Source: Candidatus Bathyarchaeota archaeon (lineage in GTDB: Archaea > Thermoproteota > Bathyarchaeia > Bathyarchaeales > Bathycorpusculaceae). From it: a DNA stretch of 64,000 bases. Shown here piece after piece: positions 50,701-64,000 of the stretch. The DNA is taken from NCBI GenBank assembly GCA_963717465.1, contig OY970340.1:1760001-1824000 (forward strand), in the 5' to 3' direction. Numbering within the stretch: the first letter of the stretch is position 1; every line of letters starts with the position of its first letter. The notes under the pieces were generated by a model. It was not told the origin of the DNA and did no database searches. It saw only the letters and a list, made by a program, of their open reading frames with translations. Position numbers and translations under genes: made by a program.

Positions 50701-53700
50701 TGCTTCTGCCTCACCATCAACGGTCGATGTTGGCCAACCAATCAGTTTGTCCGTCACTGAAAACACGGGCACCGCGCCTTACACGTATGATTGGCAGGTT
50801 AGCTCTGACGGCGGCTACTCTTGGAGTAATGTTACATCGGCTACAGTGCAGAATCCGACCTTTGATACATCCAGTTTATTTGCGGGCACGTACGAGTTTC
50901 AAGTCATAATCACTGATGAAACAGGCGCTTCTGCTATTTTCTACACTGGCTCCGTCACCGTGAATAGCGCGTTGAGTGAGGTTGCTTCTGAATCACCAAC
51001 CACAGCAGAAGCTGGACAAACAATCAGCCTATCAGTCACCCAATCAACAGGCACTGCTCCCTACACTTACGAGTGGCAATACAGCACTAACAGTAGCGTG
51101 TCTTGGGCGGATATTCCATCCGATTCCAGTTATCAAAATCCCTCCTTTGACACCACAAACTATGGAGGCCAACTCTTAGAGTTCCAAGTCATTATCACAG
51201 ATGGCGCAGGCGCTTCTCAAACCTTTACCACAAGTACCGTCCTCATAAACCCTGCAACCAGTGGGTTAAGCGAGACTGCTTCAGTCTCTCAGAGCGTTGT
51301 GGACGCTGGACAAACTGTTAATTTAACGGTTACTCAGACAACAGGTACCGGTCCCTTCACTTACGAATGGCAAGTAAGCACTGACGAAACAAACTGGAAT
51401 AACATTCCATTGTACTCACTGCAGAACTCAAGTTTTGATACGTCTGATTTGGCTGCTGGCACCTACTTCTTCCAAGTTATCGTCACTGATTCCACTGGCG
51501 CAACTGGCACCTTTAGCGCTGGCTCGGTTACAGTAAATTCTGCCCTGAGTGAGGTTGCTTCTGAATCACCAACCACAGCAGAAGCTGGACAAACAATCAG
51601 CCTATCAGTCACCCAATCAACAGGCACTGCTCCCTACACTTACGAGTGGCAATACAGCACTAACAGTAGCGTGTCTTGGGCGGATATTCCATCCGACTTC
51701 AGTTATCAAAATCCCTCCTTTGACACCACAAACTATGGAGGCCAACTCTTAGAGTTCCAAGTCATTATCACAGATGGCGCAGGCGCTTCTCAAACCTTTA
51801 CCACAAGTACCGTCCTCATAAACCCTGCAACCAGTGGGTTAAGCGAGACTGCTTCAGTCTCTCAGAGCGTTGTGGACGCTGGACAAACTGTTAATTTAAC
51901 GGTTACTCAGACAACAGGTACCGGTCCCTTCACTTACGAATGGCAAGTAAGCACTGACGAAACAAACTGGAATAACATTCCATTGTACTCACTGCAGAAC
52001 TCAAGTTTTGATACGTCTGATTTGGCTGCTGGCACCTACTATTTCCAAGTGATTGTTAACGATTCTGCGGGTGCAACAGCCACCTTCAATGCTGGCTCTG
52101 TTACGGTGAATTCTGCTTTGAGTGAGTCTGCTTATGCATCACCCGGCATGGTGGATGTCGGTCAATCCATCAGTTTATCAGTTACTGATTCTACGGGTAC
52201 TGGTCCTTTCACGTATGAGTGGCAGTACAGCACTGACAACGGTGTAATTTGGAATAACATTCCGTCGTATTCGGAGCAGAGCCCGACTTTTGATACGTCA
52301 GGCCTAGGATGGGGTGTCTACAGCTTCCAAGTCATCATTACTGATCAAACAGATGCGTCACTCACGTTGAGCACGGACCAGGTGACAGTGAATCCCGCTG
52401 TTGAAGCAGCTATTACTCCAACCTCAATTACCATGGATGTTGGTCAATCTGAAATTTTCACTGCTTGGTCGATAGGCGGCGCTGACTGCATTGGTTTCCA
52501 ATGGTACGTGAACGGTGTACCCCAAAGCGGTCAGGTCGGATCTACATTTACCTTTACGGCAACTTCAACAGTCGCTCCGTCCATAACCGTAACAACAACC
52601 GATGATTTAGGTCAAACTTCACCTCAATCATCATCTCCAACTATCACAATAAACCCAGGTTTGAGTGAGATTGCTTCTGCATCGCCGAGTGTGGTGGATG
52701 TTGGTCAACCTGTCAGTTTATCAGTTACTGATTCTACGGGTACTGGTCCTTTCACGTATGAGTGGCAGTACAGCACTGACGGCATAAACTGGAATGATAT
52801 CCCATCCTCGTCATCACAGAACCCGAGCTTTGATGCGTCAGGTTTGACTGCTGGCACTTATTATTTCCAGGTGATTGTTAATGATTCTGCGGGTGCGTCT
52901 GCTACTTTCAGCACTGGCCAAGTAACGGTGAATGTTGATCCTTCAATTAATGTGCAACCCTCTGCAGCCACCATTGATAGTGGGCAGTCTATTACTTTGA
53001 CTTCAACTGTGCAGGATGGTACTGGTTCATACTCTTGGCAATGGTTCGACAGCAGCGGCATAATTACTGGTGCATCTGGTACAGGAGCAACTGCTTCACT
53101 GCCTGTTTCAGCCTCTGACACCGGCGTCTTACGTAGTCTTCACTGACACCGGAGTAGCACCAATGGTGAATGTTAATTCAACCAGTGTTGATGTCACAGT
53201 TGATGCTGCACCCACAATCATCACTCAGCCTTCTAGGGCGTATATCGAGAGTGGGCAGTCTATTACTTTGACTTCTACGGTTCAGGGTGGTTCTGGCTCG
53301 TTCTCTTGGGCTTGTTATGATCATACTGGTTCTCTTGTCGGATCTGGCTCGGGGACAACTGCCTCGCAGGTAATCACAACTTCTGACTTTTATGGCTACT
53401 ACTTCGTCTTCACTGACACCGGTGTAAGTGCTGGTGCGACTCCAGCGTCAGCGGCGACTGTTACTTCAAACGGTGCTCCCGTTGTTGTTCTTTCTGCGCC
53501 CTCCGTTTACATTCAGCCTTCTTCTGTAACGATTGATAGTGGGCAGTCTATTACTTTGTCTTCTTCCGTGGAGGGTGGTTCTGGCGATTTCTCTTGGCAA
53601 TGGTATGATCAGACTGGCGCTATAGTGGGCGCTTATGGCTCGGGTACCACGGCTTCCTACACGTTTAGTTCTTTGAGTAGTGATGATGGTGTCTACGTGG

Positions 53701-56700
53701 TGTTCACTGATGTTTACGTTTCTTCTGGTGCTACTCCATCGTCGTTGGCGAGTGTTTCTTCTAGTAGTGTTGATGTTACAGTTGATTCTGCACCCTTAGT
53801 TTCCACTTCGCTTAATAGTGCGACGATTGACAGTGGTCAGTCTATTACTTTGACTTCTACGGTGTCTGGTGGTTCTGGCTCGTTCTCTTGGGCTTGTTAT
53901 GATCATACTGGTTCTCTTGTCGGATCTGGCACGGGTGCTTTTGCTTCGCAGTCGGTCTCAAGTTCTGATGCAGGCTACTACTTCGTGTTCACTGACACGG
54001 GTGTTTCTTCTGATGCGGCTCCAGCGGTAACTGCGTCTTCAAACAGTATAGCCGTTTATGTTAATGCGGCGCCCTACGTGAGTATTCCGCCTTCTTCGGC
54101 GACGATTTACAGTGGGCAATCTGCAAATTTGACTTCAGTTGTATCTGGTGGCAGCGGCGATTTCAACTGGCAATGGTATGACAACAGCGGTGCTATATCG
54201 GGTGCTTATGGTTCGGGTTCAACGGCTTTCTACTTGGTTTCAAGTGGTGACACTGGAGTCTACGTGGTGTTTACTGACACTGGCTTAACTTCCGGTGCGA
54301 CTCCGGATTCAACGGCAACTGCTTCTTCTAATAGTGTTGATGTTTCGATTGGTACTGCGCCTTCGATTAGCATTCAGCCTTCTTCTGCAGTTATTGACAG
54401 TGGGCAATCTATTACTTTGACTTCAACTGTGCAGGATGGTAGCGGCTCATTCTCTTGGCAATGGTATGATCAGACTGGTGCATTATCTGACGCTTACGGT
54501 ACGGGCACAACGGCCACTTACGTGTTTGGCTCTTCGGGCAACGGCACCGGAATCTATGTAGTCTTCACTGACACTGGCGTAACTCCGGCGGTGAATGTGG
54601 CTTCAAACAGTGTTAATGTTACTGTTGATGTTGCGCCTTCAATCATCTCTCAGCCCTCTTCCGCAACGATCGACAGTGGACAGTCGATAACTTTAACTTC
54701 AACGGTGTCTGGTGGAACTGGAACTTTCACTTGGACATGCTATACTCACACGGGCACTCTAGTTGGTTCTGGCTCAGGGCAGTCTGCTTCTCAGGTAGTC
54801 TCAACTGCTGACTCGGGTTATTACTTTGCGTTCACTGACACGGGTGTATCTTCCGGCGCGACCCCCACGGCAACCGCTCAGTCAAGCGGTGCTCAAGTTA
54901 TAGTTGACTCTGCACCCCAAATTAGCTCTCAGCCCTCTTCCGCAACCATTGACAGTGGACAGTCGATAACTTTAACTTCAACCGTGACAGGTGGCACCGG
55001 CTCATTCACTTGGAAATGTTACACCCACACAGGTGCTCAAGTTGGCTCCGGCTCGGGAACGTCTGCCTCGCAGATAGTCTCAACTGCTGACGCGGGTTAT
55101 TACTTTGTGTTCACTGACACAGGCGTATCTTCCGGCGCAACTCCCACGGCAACCGCTCAGTCAAACAGTGCTCAGGCTAGGGAGGATTCTGCTCCGTCAG
55201 TCAGCTCTCAGCCTTCTTCTGCGACTATTGACAGCGGCCAGTCTATTACTTTGACTTCTACGGTTCAGGGTGGTACTGGATCATTCACTTGGCAGTGGTA
55301 TAATCATGCGGGTACTGCTGTTGGTAGTGGTTCTTCTGGTACGACTGCTTCGCTTTCTGTTTCATCTGCTGATTCGGGTTACTATGTTGTGTTCACTGAT
55401 TCTGGAACTGGTTCTGCCACTCCAACCAAGACTGCTACTTCAAGCAGTGTTCAAGTTACCGTTGATTCTGCTCCGTCAGTCAGCTCTCAGCCTTCTTCTG
55501 CGACTATTGACAGCGGCCAGTCTATTACTTTGACTTCTACGGTTCAGGGTGGTACTGGATCATTCACTTGGAAATGTTACACCCACACAGGTGCTCAAGT
55601 TGGCTCCGGCTCGGGAACGTCTGCCTCGCAGATAGTCTCAACTGCTGACGCGGGTTATTACTTTGTGTTCACTGACACAGGCGTATCTTCCGGCGCAACT
55701 CCCACGGCAACCGCTCAGTCAAACAGTGCTCAGGTTGCTGTTGATTCTGCTCCTTCAATTGGTGCACAACCTGTTTCTGCTACCTTGGACAGCGGCCAAT
55801 CAATAACGTTGTCGTCTACGGTTACGAGAGGCACTGGTTCATTCACGTGGCAATGGTACGATCACAATGGCGTTGTAACGGGCGCCTCTGGAACTGGCGT
55901 ATCCGCTTCTTATGTCGTTTCAAGCGGTGACACGGGAATTTACGTGGTCTTCACTGATGCTGGTGTTAGTGCAGGTGCTTCTGGATCAAAGACTGCAACT
56001 TCAAGCACTGTTGATGTTACAATGAATGTCGCTCTAACAGTTTCTGTCAGTCCAGCTGGTCCAGTGACAATGAACATTGGACAAACTGAGACTTTTACAG
56101 CCAATCCATCTGGAGGCTCCGATAGTTACTCAACGTACACTTGGTATGTGAATGGCATCTCACAGAGCGGATATGATACATCGATGTTTAATTATACAGC
56201 CAATTCGTTAGGTTCTCTATCCATAACTGCTACTGTCACCGATAGTTTAGGAGTGACTTCATCCCAATCATCGACTTGCGATGTTACAGTCAACGATGTT
56301 GCTCCAACTATCACTGCCCCGGTCAATGTAGTAGCGTTCGCTAACAGCGCAGCAGGAGCCAGTGATGTCTCGTTAGGTTCTCCAACTGTTGGCAGCATCG
56401 CTTATTCAACTGCAGACTTATCAGTTACCAACAACGCCACCGCCATATTCCCAGTAGGCACAGTGACAGTTCTCTGGACTGTAACGGACCCAAGTGGACT
56501 AACTGCAACAGCCCTTCAAACCGTTATAATAAACCCATACTCGCCAACATCTTCATCTTCGCCGACACCAACACTTACCCCAACACCGACCCCTACTACA
56601 ACCCCAACGCAATACCAAACTTACACTGTGACCGCAACGGCACCCAACGGCACGGTCGTCAACGTCACAATCTATGGAGACATCAACAGCAGCCAAATCT

Positions 56701-57120
56701 CAAACATGACGATCTCAACATGTCAATCTGCAGCAACAACGGCTGTCTCTTTCACAATAACTGGTCAAAGCGGAACACAAAGCTTCCTTAACATGACAAT
56801 TTCAAAGAACGACGTATTCTATGGAACAGTGCCGGCAGTGAGCATCGACGGCAAACAAGCTGTTAACCAAGGTTACGTGCAAGACGCAAACAACTATTAT
56901 GTGTGGTTCTCAACAAGCTCCGGTACAAACCAGGTCTCAATACTATTTGCAAGGGCGACTAGGCAGCACAACTCCAGCATCCGCCAATGAGCCAGCTTTG
57001 GACTCATTTGCCCAATATCTATCCGTAGCAGCAGCATTAATAATCTTGGCAGCTATAATTGTAGGACTATTCGTGAAAAGAAGAAAAGACAGACAAAGCG
57101 GCATCACGATCTTAAACTAA
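47753..57120 (+). CDS. giant (~3,120 aa) Ig-like-repeat cell-surface protein with HYR domain, PT linker and TM anchor (two 1-bp frameshifts, near 53129 and 56951)
   Basis: signal peptide; ~95-aa repeats (..GQSISLSV..TYEWQYSTDG.. and PSSATIDSGQSITLTSTV..); HYR-like FPVGTVTVLWTVTDPSG; TM + KRRK; three ORFs join when one base is removed at each junction. Confidence 0.88.
50974..52040 (+). repeat. near-identical tandem duplication, 573-bp period (two Ig repeats)
   Basis: sequence from ~50974 recurs at ~51547; ORFs 50976 and 51549 translate almost identically. Confidence 0.9.
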
Positions 57121-57824: not shown

Positions 57825-60071
57825 ATGTCTGAAATCAAGAATGTGATTTGTGCAGTCTGTGACAAAGGATGCCCGCTTAAGGTCAAAGTAAACAACAATA
57901 AAATGGTTAGCGCCCAGGGACTTATGGATTCCAAAGTTATATGCATGAAACCTCAATTTGCAAATGATTACATCAATCATCCGCAAAGATTATTGTATCC
58001 ACTGAAGAACGTAGGCTCAAGAAGAGGAGAGCAAAAATGGAAACGTATCACTTGGGAACAAGCATTAGATGAAATTGCATTTAAGCTGGAAAAAATTATA
58101 AAAAAATATGGACCGGAATCATTCGCCGTTTCTACATTGCCAGTTAATGCAGGGGTAGATCAGGGAATGGTTCGAAGATTAATGAATCTGCTTGGTAGTC
58201 CGAACTGGATGAGCGGTTTATCGATGTGTATGGGTAATACTGCGCAGGTTCACAGAACTACTTTAGGCTGGTTCCCAATGGGTGATTATACACATGCAAA
58301 ATGCATTGTATATATTGGTCATAATCCACATGAACAAAACTGGGTGATGGAATACTATCAGCTATTGCAGGCTAAGGAACGAGGTGCAAAACTCATTGTT
58401 CTTGATCCACGCAAGTCACAGTGTGCAAATCTTGCTGACCTCTATTTACCCCTCCGTTATGGCACAGATGCCGCGATGCTCTTAGGTTGGCTGAATATAA
58501 TTATTAACGAAGAGCTTTATGACAAAAAGTTTGTTAAAAAATGGACAATTGGCTTTGACGAACTTAAGGAAAGAGTGCAGGACTATCCATTGGAAAAGGT
58601 TGCCAAAATAACCGACTGCAAGGCTGAGGATATCAAAAAAGCAGCCATGATGTATGCGACACAAGGACCTTCAATCATCCCTTGGAGTGTTAATTTTGAC
58701 ATGAATGTAAACAGTACATCCCTTATCCGCTGTCATAGTATTCTGGCTGCCATCTGTGGATATCTAAACAAAAGCGAAATGCTGGGCTATCTAAATCCTG
58801 ATGTTGTGACAATTTCAGAAGTAGAAATGCATGAAGCATTGCCTGACGAAAAGAAAAAGATACAGTTGGGAACCAAGACTTATCCATTATTTACTTATGA
58901 AGGCTTGAAAAAACTGAATGAACCCTCTAAAAGAGTGTATGGACGGGAGTACTGCAATGTTATATCCAGTTTCATGGCGCACCCACCTACGGTATTTAAG
59001 GCAATGCGAACTGGATCGCCATATGCTGTTAAGGCATTTTTTATCTTGGGCGGAAATCCACTGATGGGATATGCCAATCAGCAAGGTGTTTTTGAGGCAA
59101 TGAAAAATCAGGAACTGATTGTGAGCTTTGATCACCTATTAAATCCGTCAGCTCAATTGGCTGATTATGTCTTGCCTGGGGATGCTTGGCTGGAAAGACC
59201 ATCCTTATTTCCGCTATTCGATTTAGCGCCAATAGCCATTCCTTTTCAGCAAGCCCTTGTGTCTCCTGGAGAGTGCAAAGACTTGTATTTCTTCATTAAG
59301 GGTTTAGCGGATCGGTTGGGGTTAAAGGAATATTTTCCATGGAATAATCTTGTTGAGTTTATGGAATACAGAATTCAAAAATCAGGACTGAAATGGGAAG
59401 CATATGAAGAAACGCCGTTGAAGGAGTTAATGACTATATCTCAATTGTTTTCGCCATTTATGATGAAAAAGCCCATTACGAATAAAGCGATTTCAAAGGT
59501 CGGATTCATGCTGTCGTTGCCTTTTACAAAAGGTGTAGGGGTTGCCACTCCTTCGGGAAAAGTTGAGTTGAAAAGTAGTATTCTCGAAGGGCTTGGATAT
59601 GATTCGTTGCCTTATTATAAAGAACCACAACAAACCCCGATTTCAAATCCAAAGCTGGCTAAAGAGTACCCGTTGACACTGTTCATAGGATTGAGAGAAG
59701 GACCATACTATAATACCAATCTGCGTCATGTTGAAGGTTTAAGAAAGCAGTTGCCTAATCCCCTTGCTCTGATTCACCCGTCGGATGCTGCAAAATATGA
59801 TATTCAAGCAGGCGATTGGATTTGGGTTGAAACCACTCATGGCAAGGTTAAAATGATGGCGCAGCTTGATGAAGTTCAACCGGCTGGAACAATTCGCGTC
59901 CCACATGGATGGTGGTTGCCTGAGTTGGAACCTGGAGAGAAAACCGGATTTTCAGGTGCCATGTGGCATAATGATGGGTTGGTCATCAGTGATGATGATT
60001 GGAATCTTGACCCTGAACAGGGATTGCCAAATCTGAGAGGCGGATTACTGGCCAAGGTTTCGAAAATATAA
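57825..60071 (+). CDS. acetylene hydratase-like W/Mo-bis-PGD enzyme (DMSO reductase family)
   Basis: C9-x2-C12-D13-x2-C16...C40-M-K42; GSPNW...MC135MGNT; LRYGTDAA; TPSGKVEL; DDDWNLDPEQGLPNLRGG. Confidence 0.9.
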   Translation: MSEIKNVICAVCDKGCPLKVKVNNNKMVSAQGLMDSKVICMKPQFANDYINHPQRLLYPLKNVGSRRGEQKWKRITWEQALDEIAFKLEKIIKKYGPESFAVSTLPVNAGVDQGMVRRLMNLLGSPNWMSGLSMCMGNTAQVHRTTLGWFPMGDYTHAKCIVYIGHNPHEQNWVMEYYQLLQAKERGAKLIVLDPRKSQCANLADLYLPLRYGTDAAMLLGWLNIIINEELYDKKFVKKWTIGFDELKERVQDYPLEKVAKITDCKAEDIKKAAMMYATQGPSIIPWSVNFDMNVNSTSLIRCHSILAAICGYLNKSEMLGYLNPDVVTISEVEMHEALPDEKKKIQLGTKTYPLFTYEGLKKLNEPSKRVYGREYCNVISSFMAHPPTVFKAMRTGSPYAVKAFFILGGNPLMGYANQQGVFEAMKNQELIVSFDHLLNPSAQLADYVLPGDAWLERPSLFPLFDLAPIAIPFQQALVSPGECKDLYFFIKGLADRLGLKEYFPWNNLVEFMEYRIQKSGLKWEAYEETPLKELMTISQLFSPFMMKKPITNKAISKVGFMLSLPFTKGVGVATPSGKVELKSSILEGLGYDSLPYYKEPQQTPISNPKLAKEYPLTLFIGLREGPYYNTNLRHVEGLRKQLPNPLALIHPSDAAKYDIQAGDWIWVETTHGKVKMMAQLDEVQPAGTIRVPHGWWLPELEPGEKTGFSGAMWHNDGLVISDDDWNLDPEQGLPNLRGGLLAKVSKI

Positions 60072-60667: not shown

Positions 60668-61498
60668 TTGAAAAAACTAGCTTCAATTCTCTTCACTAGA
60701 ATTCCATTGGAGGGTAACACTAAAACAAGGCTCACATTAAAAGAAGAAGGTGGGATTCTAACGTCTGAAGAAGCTGCAACATTCTATAAGGCTTCAATGA
60801 TGGATGTAATTGAAGTCTTTATAAAAGTTATAAAATCATTTAATGAAGAAAAACCCAACTTGGAAAACAAGTTATTCATTGCTTATGAACCTAAAGAAAA
60901 AGAAGAAAATCTAAAAAGAATACTTGAAAAATCGGATCTGCAAGGTTTATCAAATGATTCGATAGAGCTTTTTGCAACGAGCGGCAACAATTTCAATGAG
61001 CGTATTGCTATGTCTTTTGAATATGTTTTCAAAAAGGGTTATGAATCGGCAGTTATGGTTGGAGGAGACCACCCGCTTATTCAGCCACGCGTTATTAAGG
61101 AAGCATTTGAGCATCTTGAAAGATTGGAGAGACAATACCATAGAGGAGCAATCGTTGCTGGGCCATGCATAGCAGCAGGTCTTTATTTAATTGCACAAAC
61201 AAGCAACGTGCCCATTGACTTCAGAGATGTCTTCTATAATACTCAGGGTATAACATCCTTGGAAGTTTATACCAAAAAAGCCATTGATACACAAGTTCCT
61301 TTTGCAATCCTCGAATTGGTTACCGACGTTGATGTGCCATCTGATTTAGCTGCTTTAGTAGTGAATCTTAGATCTATGGATTACGCTTCTGAATTTCAAC
61401 CAAGCCTCAATCTGCCACGGCATACACTATGGTTCATAAAAAAACTCAACCTTAGTATAATTACCCCTCCAAACCAAAGAGATATAACGCTTCATTAG
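60668..61498 (+). CDS. DUF2064 / CofC-like GT-A nucleotidyl- or glycosyltransferase
   Basis: FTRIPLEGNTKTRL, VMVGGDHP, AGPC..AGLYLI, LVTDVDVPSDL. Confidence 0.78.
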   Translation: MKKLASILFTRIPLEGNTKTRLTLKEEGGILTSEEAATFYKASMMDVIEVFIKVIKSFNEEKPNLENKLFIAYEPKEKEENLKRILEKSDLQGLSNDSIELFATSGNNFNERIAMSFEYVFKKGYESAVMVGGDHPLIQPRVIKEAFEHLERLERQYHRGAIVAGPCIAAGLYLIAQTSNVPIDFRDVFYNTQGITSLEVYTKKAIDTQVPFAILELVTDVDVPSDLAALVVNLRSMDYASEFQPSLNLPRHTLWFIKKLNLSIITPPNQRDITLH

Positions 61499-62089: not shown

Positions 62090-64000
62090 ATGACTGAGCA
62101 AAAGAAGTTCTTATGTGCATTCTGTGGAGTTCAGTGTGAAATCCTTGCTACTGTTACAAAAGATGGATTCCTGACTGCTGTCGAGCCTCGGCCCGATCAT
62201 CCAATTAGCCCCGGAGCATATTGTCGAAGGTGGACTTATTATACAGAATACCTATACAAATCAGACCGCCTCAAATATCCTATGAAGAGAGTTGGAAAAC
62301 GAGGCGAAGGCAAGTGGCAGATAATTTCATGGGAACAAGCATTTGACGAAATAGGTGCTAGACTCAGGGAGATAATTGCGAAATACGGCTCAGAAGCAAT
62401 ATACGTTTGGCACGGAACATCCCGTGGAAACCCATATGCAGGAGATACAAAGTTCGTTCGCGCAATCGGAAGCCCAGCTATCGGAGCTCCTGGAGCTGAA
62501 ATCTGATTTGCGCCCAACGTCCGTAGTTTAGGGATAACTTACGGCGTTGGACAATGCCTATCTACAGTGATACCTGGCGTAACGAAATCCATGTATAGCA
62601 CGTTCAATCATACTGAATCAAGTGAATTTATCTGGCCGATGTATCTTCGCGCAATTGAAGCGGGAATGAAGCTTATAACACCAGACCCTAGATTCACTGA
62701 GGTTGTTCGTAATTCTGCCCTCTGGCTTCAGATAAGACCAGGTACGGATGCTGCACTCAACTTGGGCATAGCACATGTGCTCATCGAGGAAAATCTCTAT
62801 GACAAAGAGTTCGTGGAGAAATGGTGTTATGGTTTCGAGCAATTGAAGGAACGCGTCAAAAACTACACACCTGAGAAAGTTGAGGAGATCACTTGGGTTC
62901 CAGCGGACAAAATCAGAGAGGCAGCAAGGACACTGGCAAACAACAAACCACAGTCGGTTCCATTACTAAACTATGGACATACTGAGCCATTCTCAAATAG
63001 CTGGGGAATCAATCGTTCGCGGCACATTCTACCCGCGCTGCTCGGAACCGTTGACGAAGAAGCTGGCGAAACGATGCCAAGCAAACCAAAATGGCGCACT
63101 CTCGAAGATTTCGACGAGCCTGACATCATGCCCATGGGACAAAGAAAGAAATTCCTGAATACTTGGAAAAATCACAAATTCGGAATGGTAGGCTGGGAAG
63201 TTCAAGAATTAATTGGTCAAGCCCAAACCAGAGGATACTGGAAAGGAAACCCATATCTTGGATGCACAGAAGTACATGGATACTTAATGACTCCTTGGAA
63301 TCTAGTAACTCGGTCTGTTCTCGAAGGCAAACCCTACCCTATAAAAGCTTTCATAGGACATCAAGGTTCTGCTCTCAGATGCGGACCCAACCAGAAACAG
63401 GCTCTTGAAGCACTGAAACAAATCGAATTCTACGTTAACATGGACACTTCAGTCATGACTCCCGATGCGATGATGGCAGACTATGTATTACCAGCTGCAA
63501 GTACAGCTGAAAGACCCATGGTCGACCTTATGATTAGTAATGCTTCAGAAATGATCTTTAACGCAAGTGCAGACGCGGTTATTCCGAAGAAAATACCAGG
63601 TCTGTGGGATCACAAGGAAGACTATGAAATGTGGCGGGAATTTACAAAGGCAATCAAGGGTCAAAAATGGATAGATGAGCACTGGCCTCAAAAGAACTAT
63701 TACGAACATTATGAGTGGGTATTCAAACCGGCAGGTATGACGCTTAAAGAAGTCGCTGAGAAGACCCCTATCCTTCCAATATTGGAACCAAGAAGATACG
63801 CGTTGCCAGACTCAGAAACTGGTGAGCCAAGAGGATTCGGAACACCCTCTGGAAAGGTCGAACTATACTCAACAATAGCTGAGAAAGTCGGATGCGACCC
63901 AATGGGTAACCATACAGATCCAGCAGCAAGTCCTTACAGCACGCCAGATATCGCAGCGGAATATCCATTTATTCTGACAACTGGAGCTAGACATGGAGAA
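62090..64000 (+). CDS. DMSO-reductase-family molybdopterin oxidoreductase with in-frame TGA at codon 139 (putative selenocysteine); runs off the window
   Basis: CAFCGVQC...C [4Fe-4S] motif; after TGA 62504..62506 the same frame stays open to 64000 with PDPRFT, IRPGTDAAL, ADYVLPAA, TPSGKVELYS, YPFILTTGAR. Confidence 0.88.
62514..62550 (+). promoter_or_regulatory. SECIS-like hairpin (bacterial type) just 3' of the in-frame UGA
   Basis: CCAACG/CGTTGG, CCGT/ACGG, AGTT/AACT stems, bulged U, GGGA apical loop. Confidence 0.6.

Follow-up and report, generated by a model that had tools for sequence, protein, structure and literature searches.

The question raised by this locus is how an in-frame TGA is read. 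The window, i.e. the whole 64,000-nucleotide (nt) stretch analysed here (C1:1760001-1824000 of a Candidatus Bathyarchaeota genome that consists of one contig of 3,053,889 bases), contains close to its end a gene on the + strand that starts at ATG 62090 and carries a TGA at 62504-62506 as its codon 139. In the list of open reading frames (ORFs) the frame appears as 62090..62506 (138 amino acids, aa) followed by a 3'-open ORF from 62567. When the TGA is read as a residue, U, the gene (62090..64000 in the window) gives 636 residues up to the window end, U139 and 497 further codons, with no other stop. An earlier reading made from the DNA letters only, hereafter the sequence-only reading, had described the frame as open with intact motifs, and this holds, its count of 498 codons being a trivial difference. 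In the genome the frame closes at a TAG and ends at C1:1824366, 366 nt past the window, and the full product has 758 aa. The open frame past the TGA is not due to chance because 619 open codons follow it in a genome of 40% G+C. As had also been noticed earlier, TGA serves as a normal stop too, at the end of 9 of the 36 window ORFs that are 150 aa or longer and of 610 such ORFs genome-wide; it is otherwise an ordinary stop codon and a genome-wide reassignment of UGA is effectively excluded. Based on the sequence comparisons discussed below, we propose that the TGA at 62504-62506 is almost certainly read as selenocysteine (Sec) at the metal-binding site of a molybdenum (Mo) or tungsten (W) enzyme.

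The read-through product has the domains of the Mo/W-bis(pyranopterin guanine dinucleotide) enzymes (bisPGD; MopB or dimethyl sulfoxide reductase superfamily), namely the molybdopterin oxidoreductase, Fe4S4 and dinucleotide-binding domains, with Pfam matches to PF00384 (101 bits) and PF04879 (36 bits), and with PF01568 on record as a precomputed match for the C-terminal piece of the window gene (P0004, 575 aa). Its best solved relative is acetylene hydratase (PDB identifier 2e7z), which is matched over residues 5-634 against 2-603 with an E-value of 2.3e-83. The N-terminal [4Fe-4S] motif (Cys9, Cys12, Cys16 and Cys45; 62114..62224, + strand) aligns with the four cluster cysteines of acetylene hydratase and is invariant in an alignment of seven paralogues. 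U139 lies in a conserved column, opposite the Cys of 'mymCign' in 2e7z, which we take to be Cys141, the tungsten ligand; Seiffert et al. 2007 reportedly describe Cys141 of acetylene hydratase in this role. The same column holds a Cys, that of GSPNWMSGLSMC, in the upstream paralogue P0002 (748 aa; 57825..60071, + strand), so that the alignment of the TGA with this Cys, as claimed by the sequence-only reading, is borne out by BLASTP (30% identity over 669 columns, E-value 4e-72).

A BLAST search with read-through frames located ten further paralogues in the genome, with 41-45% identity to the window gene; all 11 genes have the TGA in one and the same alignment column. Six full-length paralogues are 73-79% identical to a seventh, and the identities among the paralogues overall range from 41 to 94%. 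Homologues from other genomes have TGT or TGC at the ligand column in 85 of 86 loci, the remaining one being an alignment slip beside a Cys; a search for homologues with TGA or Cys at this codon, suggested by the sequence-only reading, thereby returned TGA in the ten paralogues and Cys elsewhere. In addition, nine N-terminal gene products, 143-172 aa long and encoded on at least eight other contigs, stop exactly one column before the U, and on one of these contigs lies a 598-aa product that begins just past the U column and shares 65% identity with the core paralogues. The stop codon of these nine pieces, which come from other assemblies, is presumably TGA, and the Sec form of the enzyme, judging by them, is apparently not confined to the source genome. 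A UGA opposite Cys with conserved flanks, the pattern of genetically encoded Sec, is hence seen against P0002, 2e7z and the homologues, and recurs in the paralogues and, presumably, in the N-terminal pieces. In a quick maximum-likelihood tree of 72 rows, the window gene and eight full-length Sec paralogues form a clade with a Shimodaira-Hasegawa-like approximate likelihood ratio test value of 98, and the sister of this clade is a Cys protein (P0005); the topology fits a single Cys-to-Sec change after which the gene family expanded. Signs of damage are visible in three of the eleven Sec paralogues (C1:616614-618946 on the + strand; 254305-256604 in - strand coordinates, with its TGA at 2799134; and 132694 on the - strand), two being split over two frames and one being devoid of the usual N-terminus, and the damage is either real decay or the result of assembly indel errors.

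Sec machinery is missing from the window, as the sequence-only reading had remarked, and a full set of it is located elsewhere in the genome. Two tRNA-Sec genes, 96% alike, score 71.8 and 61.8 bits against the Rfam model (cut-off 47) and are called tRNA-SeC with anticodon TCA by ARAGORN. SepSecS (489 bits) adjoins the first of them, SelD (240 bits) has one in-frame TGA of its own at VHG-U-SCK, and PSTK and SelB are fused in a single reading frame that is present in two copies (732 and 730 aa, 54% identical). All the components for which a genome search had been suggested, viz., tRNA-Sec (UCA), SelB, SelD and PSTK/SepSecS, are therefore at hand for genetically encoded Sec, and the refuting case that the sequence-only reading had named, a genome lacking a UCA-anticodon tRNA and SelB, does not apply. 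Archaeal SelB (PDB identifier 4ac9, residues 19-478 of 482) is matched from one end to the other by the SelB half, with nothing beyond; this half is of the archaeal type and has no C-terminal extension, such as the winged-helix extension that goes with the bacterial Sec insertion sequence (SECIS). At an E-value of 1e-80 or lower the PSTK-SelB fusion has 189 relatives, and those that are named belong to Bathyarchaeota/Bathyarchaeia with two exceptions, in keeping with the bathyarchaeon named by the sequence-only reading. The second tRNA-Sec adjoins the second PSTK-SelB fusion (C1:2827783-2829725), in which the GTPase motifs are altered (GHCKHGKT for GHVDHGKT, EMPGN for DLPGH and SKID for NKID) and the PSTK P-loop is intact; to judge from these motifs, the second copy may lack GTP hydrolysis. 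Sec coding in Bathyarchaeota, together with a PSTK-aSelB fusion, has already been reported in the text of Mukai et al. (PMC8762117), because of which the list of Sec-using archaea given by the sequence-only reading is out of date.

A hairpin follows the UGA in 11 of the 11 Sec genes, at a distance of 6 nt, or 7 nt in the window gene, where it occupies 62514..62550 (+ strand) and folds with -17.7 kcal/mol; like the ten further paralogues, it had escaped the sequence-only reading. Its lower stem pairs CCAACG (62514-62519) with CGUUGG (62545-62550) and is separated by a bulged U at 62520 from the upper stem, which pairs CCGUAG (62521-62526) with UUACGG (62539-62544) and closes a 12-nt loop (62527-62538). 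The other ten genes have a lower stem of CCCACG/CGUGGG, a short bulge and a variable upper stem. In the consensus structure of the 11-row alignment, 89% of the 154 cells are paired, as against 23-47% when the partners are slid, and five of the pairs are changed on both sides. Two tests that avoid the confounding effect of protein-level conservation point the same way. Among residues invariant in the eight core paralogues, the 16 codons past the U have a mean pairwise codon identity of 0.849 versus 0.556 elsewhere, with none of 377 other windows reaching as high a value, and the hairpin stretch is the peak of synonymous-site conservation in the gene. When the native 51-nt stretch is compared with 500 synonymous recodings drawn from the codon usage of the genome, 1 to 34 of the 500 are as stable as the native fold across the 11 genes (z -1.5 to -3.6), the count for the window gene being 1 of 500.

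The same stretch in Cys homologues shows no such feature. Past the Cys codon of 84 Cys homologues folding is unbiased, with a mean z of -0.15 and p<=0.07 in 10 of the 84, and no hairpin follows the Cys codon of P0002, where the minimum free energy of the 60 nt past the TGT is -9.1 kcal/mol; the real TGA stops of the genome average -8.1 kcal/mol with a standard deviation of 3.9. Strong hairpins occur in another gene of the genome, a HdrA-MvhD fusion gene (C1:1519922-1522559, - strand), which has two Sec UGAs (1521851 and 1520441) and a hairpin 6 nt past each of them (-27.4 and -29.2 kcal/mol). A MtaA-like gene (C1:2822989-2824267, - strand), which is set among corrinoid-protein genes and separated by a few kb from the second PSTK-SelB, also has two in-frame UGAs (2823619 and 2823439), the second of which is followed by a 6-nt spacer and a CCCA...UGGG stem that was recognized by eye. 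A genome-wide filter for TGA read-through kept 426 cases and dropped the window gene at its local coding-score threshold, and the resulting list of selenoproteins is incomplete.

Is the hairpin itself the recoding signal? In textbooks, a hairpin inside the gene after a Sec UGA is the bacterial arrangement and not the archaeal one, and it is this bacterial position, in the coding sequence directly past the UGA, that the hairpin occupies. We find no counterpart of an archaeal or eukaryotic SECIS in the 3' flanks or with Rfam. No stable fold is seen in the 92 nt that flank the window gene on its 3' side (z +1.7) or in the 120 nt past the stop of 12 Sec genes (z -1.6 to +2.1), which share no 9-mer except T-runs. 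These oligo-T runs, about 20-35 nt past the stop in the 12 Sec genes (for example, L001:3778-3810), look like archaeal terminators, with little space left for an element within the 3' untranslated region (UTR). Rfam searches (E<=10) of the gene locus and the SelD locus returned no SECIS family, the four matches obtained being weak and unrelated. Because the 3' flanks are unstructured, Rfam finds no SECIS and the HdrA-MvhD UGAs also have hairpins, and weighing this against the type of SelB and the case of SelD, we take the hairpin at 62514-62550 as the probable local recoding signal on the strength of these comparisons. A rival explanation accepts Sec at the UGA and regards the hairpin as an auxiliary stimulator or pause site, the true SECIS being elsewhere and unrecognised; an eukaryotic Sec redefinition element about 6 nt past some UGAs was reportedly described by Howard et al. 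2005. In its favour are the archaeal-type SelB halves without the bacterial RNA-binding extension, the absence of the short hairpin at the SelD UGA and the location of archaeal SECIS elements in untranslated regions, as stated in published texts (PMC9499178, PMC13188914, PMC11227280), one of which also states that archaea have no known SECIS-binding factor (PMC9499178). It is set back by the lack of a stable or shared element in the 120 nt past the stops, the oligo-T runs near them and the Rfam result, and we consider it unlikely, though it is the alternative to be taken most seriously.

The other rivals concern the UGA itself. Decoding as Cys or another standard residue, through a Cys-tRNA(UCA) cross-talk or a hairpin-aided near-cognate read-through, draws on the discussion of cross-talk between the Sep-tRNA-Sec and Cys pathways in archaea (in the text of PMC8762117) but is at odds with the presence of SepSecS and a Sec-type SelD, and it would need a reason for TGA being kept in 11 paralogues where TGY would suffice. 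Moreover, a profile search of the genome found neither SepCysS nor SepRS over the cut-off (best 44 and 50 bits versus 365 and 381), and therefore a diversion of Sep-tRNA-Sec to cysteine is weakened. The sequence-only reading had left the choice between Sec and a suppressor Cys; its Sec half is upheld by the machinery, and its Cys half now appears improbable. Still less probable is a nonsense pseudogene, or a truly split gene made of a 138-aa iron-sulfur piece and an approximately 575-aa catalytic piece with no protein ligand to the metal. Gene callers do cut at this place (P0004 and the N-terminal pieces), and two or three paralogues look damaged by frameshift or truncation, but the stop recurs at the same column, always the ligand position, in 11 paralogues and nine pieces from other assemblies, and the genome has the Sec machinery. 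The ratio of nonsynonymous to synonymous substitution rates (dN/dS), proposed earlier as a check on the stretch past the TGA, is 0.087-0.105 in five paralogue pairs and indicates purifying selection. For the window gene dS is saturated, and its identity to the paralogues is 49% upstream and 44-45% downstream of the TGA. Finally, a sequencing or assembly error for TGC/TGT could be entertained since the contigs of two sequencing runs (shares 0.15 and 0.06 of the stretch; 85% likeness) leave 62346-62601, and with it the TGA, uncovered; yet the same error would be needed in 11 paralogues as diverged as 41-94% identity and in other assemblies, and on this comparison the error is effectively refuted. 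Given the conserved TGA column, the low dN/dS and the similar identity of the window gene on both sides, pseudogene, split gene and sequencing error are all very unlikely to explain the TGA.

Several observations weigh against the proposal of a Sec-containing enzyme with a local hairpin signal. We infer the selenium in the protein, the translation through the UGA and the expression of the gene from sequence. The window gene is without a close orthologue, the best non-self match being 42-45% identical; the covariation in the hairpin is that among the paralogues of this genome, and the TGA of the orthologues in other assemblies is presumed. The shuffle statistics of the hairpin (0 of 500 shuffles score as high as the real alignment in pairing or in covariation) overstate the case because the 11 rows are paralogues and not independent. 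Against dinucleotide shuffles the fold of the window gene is moderate (z -1.95, 5 of 200), and column by column this gene scores as unpaired at three lower-stem pairs because its 5' arm is shifted by one base. The SelD UGA (C1:951702) has no comparable short hairpin at +6; a longer predicted structure starts 12 nt downstream of it (-37.3 kcal/mol over 103 nt). Also, no known hairpin-binding domain is at hand because SelB is archaeal-type without the winged-helix extension.

With these points taken into account, we assign a probability of about 0.88 to the whole explanation, in which the window gene encodes a W/Mo-bis-pyranopterin enzyme with a Sec ligand and a local hairpin signal. The protein would be a cytoplasmic single-subunit W- or Mo-bis-pyranopterin enzyme with an N-terminal [4Fe-4S] cluster, of the acetylene hydratase/catechol dehydroxylase clade, whose metal-binding cysteine is predicted to be replaced by Sec encoded by the UGA at 62504-62506. 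The tRNA-Sec(UCA) would be serylated and then phosphorylated by the PSTK half of PSTK-SelB, SepSecS would convert the phosphorylated Ser-tRNA-Sec with selenophosphate from SelD, and the archaeal-type SelB half would carry the Sec-tRNA to the ribosome, where the hairpin at 62514-62550 may mark the UGA for recoding locally, inside the coding sequence. We are slightly inclined to go further and to see here a third arrangement for Sec, in which archaeal machinery is combined with an in-gene hairpin 6-7 nt past the UGA and no 3'-UTR SECIS, the reader being possibly the fusion or its diverged second copy; such an arrangement could have let one lineage turn an eleven-enzyme family into selenoproteins.

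The distribution of the Sec form was followed in related genomes, and within the group of the source organism the enzyme is rare. An order-level search of 151 genomes found inner-TGA copies in the source genome only, and of 401 genomes searched at class level with P0006 as the query, none except the source genome yielded a copy whose ligand column is TGA. The enzyme was absent from the results in 12 genomes of the same genus in the order search and in 39 in the class search with this query. SepSecS scores over the cut-off in 4 of 121 genomes of the family, and a search of these four found no Sec copy of the enzyme. Two loci considered as inner-TGA copies (L225 and L059) were rejected, the TGA being the ordinary stop of each gene. 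A scan of genome contigs for relatives gave 80 loci, the best of which is 46% identical and every one of which has Cys at the ligand column; a scan of metagenomes gave another 80 loci, at best 40% identical.

The genes around the Sec gene, which encode an Ig-domain protein, a DUF2064 protein and an SCP2 protein, are uninformative on the substrate. P0002 and the Sec gene are 2 kb apart with the DUF2064 gene (60668-61498) between them. The window also encodes, at 53070-56990, a probable surface protein of 1306 aa in which five Ig_3 domains and, weakly, CVNH and HYR are matched. At 62643-62793 and 63040-63190 the window is matched without a difference by two 151-nt contigs from a peat-metagenome run (X1), and the source organism or a near strain may be present in that peat sample at low depth.

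A full-text search of the literature, figures and supplements aside, found neither a Sec form of an acetylene-hydratase-like enzyme nor an in-gene archaeal SECIS. A review table lists selenium as a ligand of Mo/W only for formate and formylmethanofuran dehydrogenases (PMC13188914). If the proposal is true, the genes described here would be a second clade of enzymes with a Sec ligand, one that has expanded and whose active-site context is different; they would widen the chemistry where selenium is believed to pay off, and automatic annotation would be splitting all these Sec genes in two. The hairpin bears on the old question of how archaea separate a Sec UGA from a stop, and an in-gene signal beside archaeal machinery is directly testable with the reporter system that exists for Methanococcus (PMC9622424).

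A comparison with enzymes of known function places the window protein near, but probably not among, the acetylene hydratases. It resembles acetylene hydratase of Pelobacter acetylenicus (2e7z) in its size, the lack of a signal peptide, the four cluster cysteines and the ligand column. It differs in having Sec at that column where acetylene hydratase has Cys, and in the residue after the second cluster Cys, an Asp in acetylene hydratase (CQSCD), where the window protein has CAFCG and the core paralogues have CGFCS. This Asp is essential in acetylene hydratase. The Cys paralogue P0002 keeps it (CAVCD, matching the CxxCD of acetylene hydratase) and may be the closer functional counterpart of that enzyme. 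Catechol dehydroxylases of gut Actinobacteria (Cldh and Dadh of Gordonibacter/Eggerthella) are placed closest to acetylene hydratase, and said to have relatives among environmental bacteria and archaea, in a text in which the word selenocysteine has no occurrence (PMC7028382). The Gordonibacter loci are 30-36% identical to the window protein, and in the quick tree their rows sit on long branches that do not belong to the Sec clade. For the substrate class we can offer a low-confidence guess, viz., that the enzyme acts on small unsaturated or aromatic (catechol-like) compounds, reductively or by hydration.

The Sec-containing formate dehydrogenases (FDHs; FdhF, FdnG and FdhA) and FwdB belong to the same superfamily and share with the window protein the N-terminal [4Fe-4S] cluster and a UGA-encoded Sec at the same ligand position. 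The matches to FDH chains (E-values 1e-43 to 1e-33) are limited to the N-terminal ~300 residues of the window protein. The Sec signature of FDH and FwdB is given as U-H-x-P (PMC13188914, Table 1), whereas the window gene has U-F-A-P and its ten paralogues U-A-G-P, so that the His adjacent to Sec is missing in all of them. An identity as formate dehydrogenase was rejected owing to this difference and to the limited extent of the match.

With regard to the decoding system, the nearest likeness in position is the bacterial SECIS of E. coli fdhF, likewise a stem-loop that follows the UGA by a few bases within the coding sequence (in the text of PMC13188914), the comparison being one of position. 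The machinery in the present genome is archaeal instead (PSTK, SepSecS), with a SelB that is without the winged-helix extension. In the text of Mukai et al. (PMC8762117) SECIS has no occurrence and selenoprotein one, figures and supplements lying outside this count, and the Bathyarchaeota system described there has the same PSTK-aSelB fusion as the present genome.

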